From a virus: 64,000 bases of DNA. The DNA lies in IMG/VR virus record IMGVR_UViG_3300045988_175774. One strand, given 5' to 3'. Shown here in pieces: positions 18,234-19,327 of the stretch (within the stretch, counting starts at the first letter, position 1; every line of letters begins with the position of its first letter). The position numbers and the translations under genes are program-made. The notes beneath the pieces were generated by a model. The model made no database searches. It saw only the letters and a program-made list of their open reading frames with translations, and was not told the DNA's origin.

Positions 18234-19327
18234 CGTGTTGTTCCCATGTTTTCATCGGCACTGACTATCTCTTACTCAATTAATACAAATTAAGGAGACC
18301 ATTTCGACATTTAACTAGCTTCGTTGCCTAGAACTAGACTACGTATCAATAGTAGCTCTACTTCCCTGCCCAGAAGGCTTAGGGAATAGTCGATACAGGT
18401 TCAAATATTTATCCATTTTTTTTCTTTTTTCTTATATATTGGAAGATTGCTATAATATCTTCCCCATAGGATTTGTTGAAACGATTGATAAGATATACGT
18501 TCCTTATAATCCTGATAAATCTGTTTTGCACTTTCTACTACATATCGCTTTCTAATCAAAATTACTTCTTCATCAGAAAGTTTAGCAGAAGCACTATTTC
18601 CACCTTTGCTATTCTCATACATATAATATTTTTTATTTTCTTCGGTAAAAACTTCTGGCATTATATGCGACCAAGCTTTTCCTTGCCAGAGATTTTGAAA
18701 ATAGCTAAATGAAATTTTATCTTTATAATCTTCATAAACATCTTTTTGTTTAAGATGATTATTATATGCCTTTCGTATGTTAATAACATCTTCTTCGGTT
18801 AATTTAGCCCGTCCGTTATTTTTTCCAATGGACTGTTGATTTCCACCTTCTGAACAGTTATATCCATTTTTAATGGCATTTAATTTTTTAATCCAATATT
18901 CTTCTCTAGCATTAAGGTCATCTATAGAACATTCTTCTAAAATTTCATAATCAAAATTATCTGCACCATATTTCTGTATAGCAACATCTACTGGAATTCT
19001 ATTTTTTTCACCAGCTATTTTATGCTCTTGAAATCTTCTTTGAATATTATTTGATTGACCTATATATATTTTATTGTTAGTTTTGTTTGTTATTTTATAA
19101 ATTCCTATCATCTTTAACTCTCCTTCATTTTTATTTTTGAAAGAGAATGAATAAATATTTGTTTCCCACGGGATTACCATATCTTGCTCAAGGACTTAGG
19201 ATTCCCCGTTAGCAAAAATTTTCTCTTTCATATTTATATGAGAACCATATGGATCACATAAATATGTTTTGACCAAAATTTTTACCCGCTTGATTAAGCG
19301 AAAAGTCTTTCATACGCCGTATTACTG
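18234..19327 (-). mobile_element. putative group I intron carrying a GIY-YIG homing endonuclease ORF, splitting the TOPRIM DADV|DGAHI motif of topoisomerase II subunit B
   Basis: Exon 1 ends ...GAC GU (U at position -1). The intron ends ...ACACG (omega G) before U GAU GGU. Joining gives IMSDADVDGAHIKNL. The GC-rich flanks 18248-18400 and 19181-19293 suggest structured RNA. The arrangement is analogous to T4 39-mobA-60. Confidence 0.55.
18401..19180 (-). CDS. GIY-YIG homing endonuclease (intron-encoded or inter-exon)
   Basis: IGIYKITNKTNNKIYIGQSNNIQRRFQEHK...NGYN motif. Third GIY-YIG paralog in the window. Confidence 0.8.
   Translation of the reverse strand: MVIPWETNIYSFSFKNKNEGELKMIGIYKITNKTNNKIYIGQSNNIQRRFQEHKIAGEKNRIPVDVAIQKYGADNFDYEILEECSIDDLNAREEYWIKKLNAIKNGYNCSEGGNQQSIGKNNGRAKLTEEDVINIRKAYNNHLKQKDVYEDYKDKISFSYFQNLWQGKAWSHIMPEVFTEENKKYYMYENSKGGNSASAKLSDEEVILIRKRYVVESAKQIYQDYKERISYQSFQQILWGRYYSNLPIYKKKEKKWINI

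Follow-up and report, generated by a model that had tools for sequence, protein, structure and literature searches.

Does an element that interrupts a gut-phage topoisomerase gene inside its metal-binding motif divide the protein in two, or is it removed from the RNA? The question is raised by a viral DNA of 64,000 nucleotides (nt) from IMG/VR (record IMGVR_UViG_3300045988_175774), hereafter the window, in which the gene for the B subunit of a ParE/GyrB-like type IIA topoisomerase is broken by an insert that carries an endonuclease gene (19327..18234; this and all features below lie on the minus strand unless stated otherwise). Our answer, held with high confidence, is that the insert is a mobile group I intron of the phage td/Twort (IA2) type.

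In outline, the B-subunit gene would be transcribed through the insert and the RNA would fold into a ribozyme comprising P1 and P3 to P9, with P7.1 and P7.2 and with two extra hairpins between P3 and J3/4. The first attack, after U19328, would come from a free guanosine bound at P7, and the second, after G18234, from the 3′-OH of exon 1 thus released; ligation (GAC GU|U GAU GGU) would give one ParE/GyrB-like protein of 635 amino acids (aa) with its DxDxDG metal-binding motif intact. The loop of P6 would encode an I-TevI-like GIY-YIG homing endonuclease whose ribosome-binding site is held in a hairpin and which, in a mixed infection, would cut intron-less alleles near the site, leaving repair to copy the intron in. 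The splicing chemistry, the endonuclease activity and homing are what we infer from the observations that follow.

The interrupted gene

Three open reading frames (ORFs) occupy the locus. The upstream one (20832..19294, 512 aa) reads through exon 1 (19328..20832) to ...RYGKIIIMSDADV and then through ten further codons, SNTAYERLFA, to a TAA; exon 1 itself ends ...IIIMSDADV, with GT supplying bases 1-2 of the Val codon. The downstream ORF (18247..17831, 138 aa) opens with MGTTR and continues DGAHIKNLFYTF...; exon 2 (17831..18233) begins U GAU GGU, that is (V)DGAHIKNLFY..., and runs to the stop codon. Between the two, the middle ORF (19180..18401) contains a GIY-YIG domain recognised by Pfam. In the upstream product Pfam finds DNA_gyraseB, HATPase_c and Toprim, the last only over profile positions 1-67 of 96 (the first two thirds); in the downstream product it finds DNA_gyraseB_C, and exon 2 supplies the remainder of TOPRIM together with the GyrB C-terminal domain. 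The insert, 1,094 nt long, interrupts the TOPRIM metal-binding motif between DADV and DGAH. A first-pass annotation, made from the letters alone, had described a B-subunit gene split in TOPRIM by a ~1.1-kb element bearing a GIY-YIG endonuclease, with an upstream ORF ending at DADV and a downstream ORF resuming TOPRIM; the ORF translations, the Pfam domains and the length of the insert bear it out.

The boundaries proposed there, with U at -1 and G at the final intron position, also hold: the last base of exon 1 is T/U (19328), the last base of the insert is G (18234), and the junction GAC GT|T GAT GGT stays in frame. Across it the predicted spliced RNA reads GAUGCGGACGU|UGAUGGUGCUCAC and the predicted peptide ...IIIMSDADVDGAHIK. 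Residues 3-626 of the 635-aa product of the joined exons align with residues 32-659 of S. pneumoniae ParE (4juo_C; E 2e-113), with no gap at the junction (IIIMSDADVDGAHIKNL in the window, IIIMTDADTDGAHIQTL in 4juo_C) and with both TEGDSA and DADVDG kept. Only after splicing does a single chain hold the full set expected of a GyrB/ParE protein: GHKL ATPase, transducer, TOPRIM with EGDSA and DxDxDG, and C-terminal domain. The exons were delimited by the ORF list, Pfam and the ParE alignment, to which the junction adds in the case of exon 2. Directly downstream lies the gene for an intact partner A subunit (15259..17607), GyrA/ParC-like and 782 aa long (Pfam DNA_topoisoIV and DNA_gyraseA_C), the protein being identical to one encoded on a 135.6-kb human-gut metagenome scaffold (L135).

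Two further points concern the insert as a whole. The description of its flanks as GC-rich is correct relative to the endonuclease ORF (27% GC) and the whole window (31%), but not in absolute terms, the 5′ flank having 34% and the 3′ flank 41%. An intein was considered and rejected: stop codons interrupt the exon frame within the insert, where GIY-YIG is the only protein domain detected.

Proposed ribozyme anatomy and covariation

With a search pattern based on the two best-conserved stretches of the window (CTGTATCGACTAT ... GATAGTCAGTG), 48 viral contigs were recovered, which we read as carrying one RNA family at several sites, in the topoisomerase B gene and in several other genes. Alignment A1 comprises the 3′ halves of 26 members inserted elsewhere, without the window and its same-site relatives, and alignment A2 the 5′ halves of 15 other-site members; from these the covariance models R1 and R2 were built, respectively. 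R1 has a sole match in the 64 kb, at 18401..18234 (78.5 bits, E 6.7e-16), which covers the full length of the model and ends at G18234; R2 matches 19287..19160 (43.1 bits, E 2.7e-11). A second R2 match, at 24156-24261 (+) on the opposite strand in a PhoH-like gene (15 bits, E 0.03), was taken as noise. The same models recognise introns proven to be self-splicing: R1 matches the Twort orf142 intron (L133 1181-1293; 41.8 bits, E 1.4e-7) and the T4 td intron (L132 1293-1409; 39 bits, E 5.9e-7), while R2 matches the Twort introns with 33.6 bits (E 3e-8) and td with only 11.9 bits. The Twort orf142 introns (IA2) are the best-scoring experimentally characterised relatives of both halves. The td and Twort records were found by blastn with core sequences that proved 100% and 97.8% identical to them.

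The predicted 5′ splice site is marked by P1, in which the final exon bases ACGU (19328..19331) pair with the internal guide sequence GCGU (19314..19317), U19328 at -1 forming a G.U wobble with G19317. Guide sequences were sought at a position fixed relative to P3; an earlier unconstrained search for P1 combined with ORF continuity was replaced, having returned spurious 5′ splice sites because more than one in-frame join stays open. Across six insertion sites the guide tracks the exon, with U always at -1 and G always the last intron base: ACGU/GCGU at DADV|DG, CGGU/GCCG at DADVDG|AH, AGGGU/GCCCU at TEG|DSA and in another gene, and elsewhere GAGGU/GCCUC, GAGGAU/GUCCUC and AAUGGU/GCCAUU. Most of the predicted joins create long ORFs, and in the topoisomerase gene they bring conserved motifs back together. 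The helix score is 8.05 for a guide with its own partner and 5.75 with the partners of other members.

P3 is formed by AGACU (19304..19308) and GGUCU (18296..18300), the latter right after a conserved GAAAU as in Twort; besides the fold and R1, it is supported by nine distinct complementary variants in the family, such as AGACU/GGUCU, GAGUCCU/GGGACUC and UAUCCCU/GGGGAUA, and by the same self-versus-cross control (10.4 with the own partner, 7.7 with those of others). A canonical P2-P3 layout was tried and abandoned, there being only 5 nt between the guide and P3 and two hairpins after P3. The first of these, hairpin X (CGCUUAAUCAAGCG, 19287..19300), is P3.1-like, has a covarying stem and holds the TAA (19296..19294) that stops read-through from exon 1. 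Its loop, AUCAA, is complementary to UUGAU in the 9-nt loop of P7.2 (UAUUGAUAC, 18351-18343), and the two loops co-vary (AUCA/UGAU, ACCA/UGGU, GGUU/AACC). A kissing tertiary contact between them, one with no counterpart in td or Twort, appears likely, although the support is modest and the statistics are weak. Hairpin Y (19214..19283) is long and P3.2-like, and its length varies in the family from about 11 to 77 nt.

The next segment (19168..19213) contains J3/4 (GCUAA), P4 (CGGGG / UCCCGU) and the P5 hairpin, identified through R2 and a partial match to the Rfam model RF00028. It is the part closest to td and Twort (CUAACGGGGAA...AAUCCCGUG), and P4 shows one compensatory change, from G-C to A-U, in phage LW81. 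P6a pairs CAAAUAUUUAUUCA (19148..19161) with 18415..18402, so that the endonuclease ORF stands in the P6 loop. Its sequence differs in nearly every member with complementarity kept: in a fixed register 7.3 of 8 positions are paired with the own partner and 3.65 of 8 with the partners of other members.

On the 3′ side, the guanosine-binding helix P7 consists of CGACUAU (18386..18392) and AUAGUC(A)G (18261..18268), the second strand preceded by J8/7 (UAAGAG) and located by A1 and R1. The helix has the expected bulge, CGACUAU / AUAGUC[A]G, its paired bases being those of td and Twort (CGACUAU / AUAGUC[U]G), and it is invariant in the family. A first manual reading of P7 as GUAGAGCUAC/GUAGUCU had to be discarded, as it left no space for the 3′ strand of P3 and for P8; that helix is P7.2. 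P7.1 (18363..18385) shows compensatory change in all three modelled pairs, and P7.2 (GAGCUAC, the loop already mentioned, GUAGU...UC; 18306..18358) in 7 of 7. P8 (18275..18297) lies outside the alignment, but a hairpin is present there in every member, with differing sequences. P9 (CCGAUG-AAAA-CAUGGG, 18243..18258) has compensatory changes in 5 of 6 pairs, and the intron closes with its terminal guanosine (omega-G, 18234), the end point of R1 and the base with which all members end.

Covariation is present in both halves. In A1, from which RNAalifold recovers P7, P7.1, P7.2 and P9, 99.1% of cells are paired, compared with 76.8% after shuffling, and 15 of 22 pairs have compensatory changes; in A2 the figures are 96.6%, 80.9% and 9 of 20. 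None of 500 shuffles was as high in either alignment, and controls in which the strands were slid gave 33-42% (A1) and 30-49% (A2). Compensatory changes fall in P1, P3, P6, P7.1, P7.2 and P9. The window has the conserved group I core, with P3-P4-P6, P7-P8, the P3/P7 pseudoknot and covariation, P7 being uninformative in the last respect.

Several observations weigh against this assignment. Because the search pattern came from the P7 strands of the window itself, P7 is conserved in the family by construction, and its invariance carries no weight. RF00028 (Intron_gpI), with a gathering threshold of 50 bits, matches the 5′ half alone, at 18.2 bits, and leaves the 3′ half without a match; searches of 17500-20000 and of each flank with Rfam gave only this partial 18-bit match, and at gathering threshold Rfam reports tRNAs only in the whole window. 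Even an ORF-less homolog (L023) reaches 24.2 bits, below the same threshold, in an alignment that is full-length (E 4e-4 in a 501-nt search); another family member, L019, scores 36 bits (E 1e-5). P10, the pairing of the 3′ exon with the P1 loop, was looked for and no convincing candidate was seen. Within the window's own structure, P9 has one G/G mismatch and the 3′ strand of P7.2 has a 30-nt insertion (18337..18308). Finally, an in-frame ATG (18247..18245) stands 15 nt before exon 2.

The RF00028 threshold is a database criterion and not a biological one, and the score is depressed by the 767-nt ORF in P6 and by the extra hairpins of the family. A group I covariance search, which the first-pass annotation had named as a check, therefore has a divided outcome: the Rfam model stays below threshold and the family-specific models match both flanks. 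The low Rfam score, the mismatch in P9 and the extra 30 nt in P7.2 could together be read as signs of a decayed group I intron that no longer splices, in which case the B gene would be a pseudogene or encode a truncated ATPase fragment. We consider this extremely improbable because the core helices P1, P3, P4, P6, P7 and P8 are all intact in the window, as are both exons, the partner A subunit and the endonuclease ORF, which is uninterrupted and scores above the TIGR01453 cut-off. The insertion in P7.2 is common to four relatives (L006, L043, L136 and L137) and forms a hairpin of its own (18337..18315) that co-varies with L043 and L006. The whole arrangement, moreover, recurs in independent metagenomes (L053 in IMG/VR, L135 in ENA). 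Samples containing this phage include ENA ERZ28657934 / SAMEA3664885.

Alleles, split genes and the T4 gene 60 site

Viral contigs were scanned with the spliced protein, which gave 80 related loci of 64-97% identity. At 78 of them the gene is uninterrupted, with DADVDGAHIKNLFY: D[A]DxDGxHIKNLFY is read in one frame at 76, and two more are intact with DGDVDG or DGDIDG. The two interrupted loci are L053, which has the window's insert, and L057. Junction DNA of intron-less alleles (for example GATGCTGACGTTGATGGTGCTCAT, or ...ATGTCTGATGCAGATGTTGATGGTGCTCATATC... in L054; others include L052, L055 and L056) agrees with the joined exons of the window. The alleles of L052 and L054-L056 are candidate substrates for the endonuclease. 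As the gene is otherwise one reading frame in relatives, the insert is a gain. Sensitive blastn searches traced similarity in unrelated phages to the non-coding flanks and not to the ORF: Enterococcus phages EF1/EF5 and Lak phages resemble the window in the 3′ flank, and Lactococcus 949-like phages in the P4-P6 segment. Among 50,697 phage records, which do not include this phage, megablast with the locus gave no match.

In topoisomerase B genes the family occupies four sites. The window and about a dozen others have it at DADV|DG; L009, L017 and L057 have it at DADVDG|AH; further members lie at TEG|DSA, in the other TOPRIM motif; and at KG|LGE it is found in LW81, in L047 and as the second intron of L023. 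Copies at the window's own site include two without an ORF, in L023 (347 nt) and in L006 (369 nt), a close relative of the window's phage; at ~350 nt, such an insert is a conserved non-coding RNA. Among the nearest relatives, L053 encodes an exon-1 protein 97% identical to that of the window, and L135 has the identical GyrA, the same gene layout and a sequence identical over the aligned 221-nt 3′ part of the insert. L136 and L137, with GyrA 100% identical to the window's, carry the window's intron with a variant P9.

Some close relatives hold more than the window does. An additional family intron, absent from the window, is present at TEG|DSA in L006 (1361-1661), L136 (about 950-2310; its GyrA is that of the window), L007, L014, L035 and L036. 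Several TEG|DSA introns end ...AGGAGCACAUG|GAUAG, which puts a Shine-Dalgarno (SD)-like AGGA(G) together with an AUG right at the 3′ splice site. A stretch of L010 (IMGVR_UViG_3300045988_131511, 7.8-15 kb) is unusually intron-dense, with at least seven Rfam Intron_gpI matches and two members of the present family.

These alleles bear on a second explanation of the locus, namely that it is a split gene: a free-standing endonuclease gene would have divided the B subunit into polypeptides of 512 and 138 aa, with the short added tails SNTAYERLFA and MGTTR, that assemble without RNA splicing. Split genes with a free-standing endonuclease include T4 39/mobA/60 and Aeh1 nrdA/mobE. The two ORFs are formally present, exon 1 with ten codons to a stop and exon 2 behind the in-frame ATG noted above, and there is a precedent in the very same domain, mobA separating genes 39 and 60 of T4, whose products assemble (PMC2988022; bioRxiv 10.1101/2022.08.31.505936). 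Evidence on the start codon that it requires goes against it. No SD-like motif was found in -18..-4 before the ATG at 18247, in agreement with the earlier remark that the downstream exon lacks a ribosome-binding site, and the ATG is part of the 3′ strand of P9. It is not conserved: in 10 of 12 same-site homologs no in-frame initiation codon stands anywhere from the preceding stop to the splice site. Most telling are L136 and L137, in which P9 has changed from CCGAUG/CAUGGG to CUUAUG/CAUAAG, so that the helix is kept, and even improved, while the ATG is lost; here the gene caller yields only a 70-aa C-terminal fragment.

The structure of the insert points the same way. A split gene of this kind would have a conserved downstream start and no ribozyme around the endonuclease, whereas at this locus the ORF lies between ribozyme halves, with flanks that fit ribozyme models and covary at the level of RNA, not of protein. 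ORF-less inserts of ~350 nt persist at the same site, and a conserved non-coding insert of that size in a catalytic motif is something that the free-standing endonuclease model neither predicts nor explains. We therefore judge a split gene to be very improbable. The first-pass annotation had preferred a group I intron to a split of the T4 39/mobA/60 kind, a preference supported by the model matches, P1, the ORF-less alleles and the non-conserved start.

The comparison with T4 is nonetheless instructive. The enzyme is the same, and in both cases an endonuclease-borne insertion interrupts the TOPRIM metal-binding motif. T4 differs in making two polypeptides and in ribosome hopping, in having the free-standing HNH endonuclease MobA and in having no ribozyme; for the window, the evidence favours a single polypeptide made after RNA splicing. 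Insertion of the MobA element is reported to be always in Toprim, where it splits a metal-binding site, and to disrupt the target site of the element's own endonuclease (bioRxiv 10.1101/2022.08.31.505936). GIY-YIG enzymes in bypass cassettes are reported in the same preprint. The window's intron would likewise disrupt the target of its endonuclease.

Translation of the T4 record gives gp60 as ...NVAIMTDADHDG, followed by the annotated 50-nt bypass region and then LGSIYPSLL. BLAST aligns gp60 (...AIMTDADHDG, 50-nt gap, LGSIY) with IIIMSDADVDG-AHIKNLFY of the window, and the T4 gap therefore falls at DADVDG|AH, the codon boundary where the sister introns of L009, L017 and L057 are inserted, 6 nt downstream of the window's insertion site. 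This coincidence shows that the TOPRIM metal-binding motif has been invaded repeatedly, and it may bear on the source of the bypass cassette. A more far-reaching idea, that the DxDxDG codons of phage topoisomerase II are a homing hot spot shared by unrelated selfish elements with differing modes of repair, strikes us as unlikely, the alternative being convergence on a strongly conserved target. Should the endonucleases of the two systems recognise overlapping DNA, or should one of the elements have ousted the other, the introns and the T4 'hop' would have occupied one site in competition or in succession; such sharing, if true, would help to trace the bypass cassette to its origin by comparison.

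Relatives, endonuclease and significance

The td intron of T4, host of I-TevI (IA2), also cuts a phage DNA-metabolism gene in a conserved motif. It shares with the window the order P7 (CGACUAU), P7.1, AGUAG, P7.2, GAAAN, 3′ strand of P3, P8, J8/7 with the 3′ strand of P7 (AUAGUC.G) and P9, and also the P4 segment (CUAAACGGGGAA...AAUCCCGUG). In both introns a GIY-YIG ORF occupies the P6 loop, its 3′ end running into the core, with the ribosome-binding site in a hairpin. The host gene and site differ (td, not a topoisomerase B subunit). Further, td has a P2 between P1 and P3, which the window lacks, and its P3 lies directly before J3/4, without the window's two P3.1/P3.2-like hairpins. It also has P9.1 and P9.2, whereas the window's intron ends about 9 nt past P9, and the C-terminal DNA-binding half of I-TevI is unrelated to that of the window's endonuclease. 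The Twort orf142 group I intron, for which a crystal structure is known, resembles the window in the GAAAU that precedes the 3′ strand of P3, in the layout of P7.1 and P7.2 and in a P9 closed by a GAAA loop. The Twort introns differ in being ORF-less, in having P2 and in lacking hairpins between P3 and J3/4 (in the alignment of R2 with Twort exactly the 35 positions of these hairpins are deleted); their P7.2 has neither the UAUUGAUAC loop nor the partner hairpin.

Of the features of subgroup IA2 (phage td/Twort type), the window has P7.1 and P7.2 between P7 and the 3′ strand of P3, in a layout that aligns to td and Twort, but not a P2 between P1 and P3 or a P3 next to J3/4. Because P3.1 is recognised as an optional helix of group I introns (PMC3873408), the missing P2 and the extra hairpins are treated here as a peripheral variant and the intron is termed 'IA2-like'.

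Relatives also exist in cultured phages. Lactococcus phage LW81 (L002, KY554777.1 58339-58626) has an ORF-less family intron of ~290 nt in the same gene. It fills the 288-nt gap between LW81_101 and LW81_102, both annotated as 'subunit B of topoisomerase' with no intron annotated, and it differs in its insertion at KG|LGE, in the C-terminal domain rather than in TOPRIM. In Enterococcus phage EF1 (L001, MF001358.1) unannotated family introns lie among coding sequences for DNA polymerase III alpha and hypothetical proteins, with two strong matches to the 3′-half model (85.6 and 54.5 bits) and one to the 5′-half model (69.5 bits).

The endonuclease (18401..19111, 236 aa and a stop, its last codons forming the 3′ strand of P6a) most likely begins at the ATG at 19111, which is preceded by the SD sequence GAAGGAGAG, rather than at 19180; in a gene call made independently, an identical contig has its start at the same ATG. 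The protein is recognised by Pfam GIY-YIG (E 1.5e-12) and by NCBIfam TIGR01453 'group I intron endonuclease' (86.2 bits, cut-off 56.05), and PHROG homing-endonuclease families also match it. With residues 4-108 of I-TevI, the catalytic domain, it shares 35% identity, and in GIYKI...YIGQS...RRFQEH...REEYWIKKLN...NGYN the GIY, YIG, Arg, Glu and Asn positions are kept. Translation of I-TevI is controlled by a ribosome-binding site held in a hairpin. In the window the SD (19126..19118) can pair with an upstream anti-SD, UUCUCUUUC, in a predicted hairpin at 19117..19148 (z -1.75 when taken alone). Nearly all of the members examined that carry an endonuclease have a hairpin of this kind, an SD-like AGGAG paired with an upstream CUCC/CUCU stretch, in differing sequence, and this recurrence suggests translational restraint; the hairpin is likely to act as a brake on the endonuclease. 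As a separate observation, the endonuclease ORFs of L009, L017, L021 and L039 have TGA where the window and others have TGG (Trp), in ...ILWGRYY... and ...KKWINI, which suggests that some phages carrying the family intron may read TGA as Trp.

The window holds three further homing-endonuclease-like genes within 10 kb, at 8345-9169, 10443-11180 and 12480-13286. The types represented are LAGLIDADG_3, GIY-YIG with NUMOD1 and an I-HmuI-like NUMOD, and a 268-aa protein with a C-terminal GIY-YIG, whose gene adjoins that for ThyX (11777-12457). Since a search of 6900-14200 with Rfam (E<=0.1) recognised no intron around these genes, they look free-standing. Elsewhere, an array of 30-31 tRNA genes on one strand (43331-57446) has anticodons for 19 of the 20 amino acids, with no Val anticodon and no suppressor tRNA found. 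A cluster unusual for a phage (30758-37238) encodes an 827-aa protein with Major Vault Protein shoulder and repeat domains, an AAA_5 ATPase, a DUF7192 protein and an SPFH/Band 7-flotillin-like protein.

In the literature searched there was no paper describing a group I intron in a phage gyrase/topoisomerase B gene, which does not show that none exists, and a 2014 review of bacterial group I introns leaves gyrase/topoisomerase B genes unmentioned. The kind of element is a textbook one, and knowledge of the group I mechanism is unchanged by our findings; what is new is the host gene, the site, a family invisible to Rfam at threshold, and the polymorphism. Public records show members of this family as two 'subunit B' genes or as 'hypothetical proteins', as in LW81 and EF1; with a model specific to the family, many phage genes now wrongly split would be joined. 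The whole life cycle is represented in a single gene of one clade of phages, from intron-less alleles through an intron with its endonuclease to introns from which the endonuclease has been lost, together with neighbouring sites 6 nt apart and strains of identical GyrA that differ by one extra intron. Because the guide sequence has been retargeted together with the site, this clade makes a good natural system for the study of homing and of site switching.

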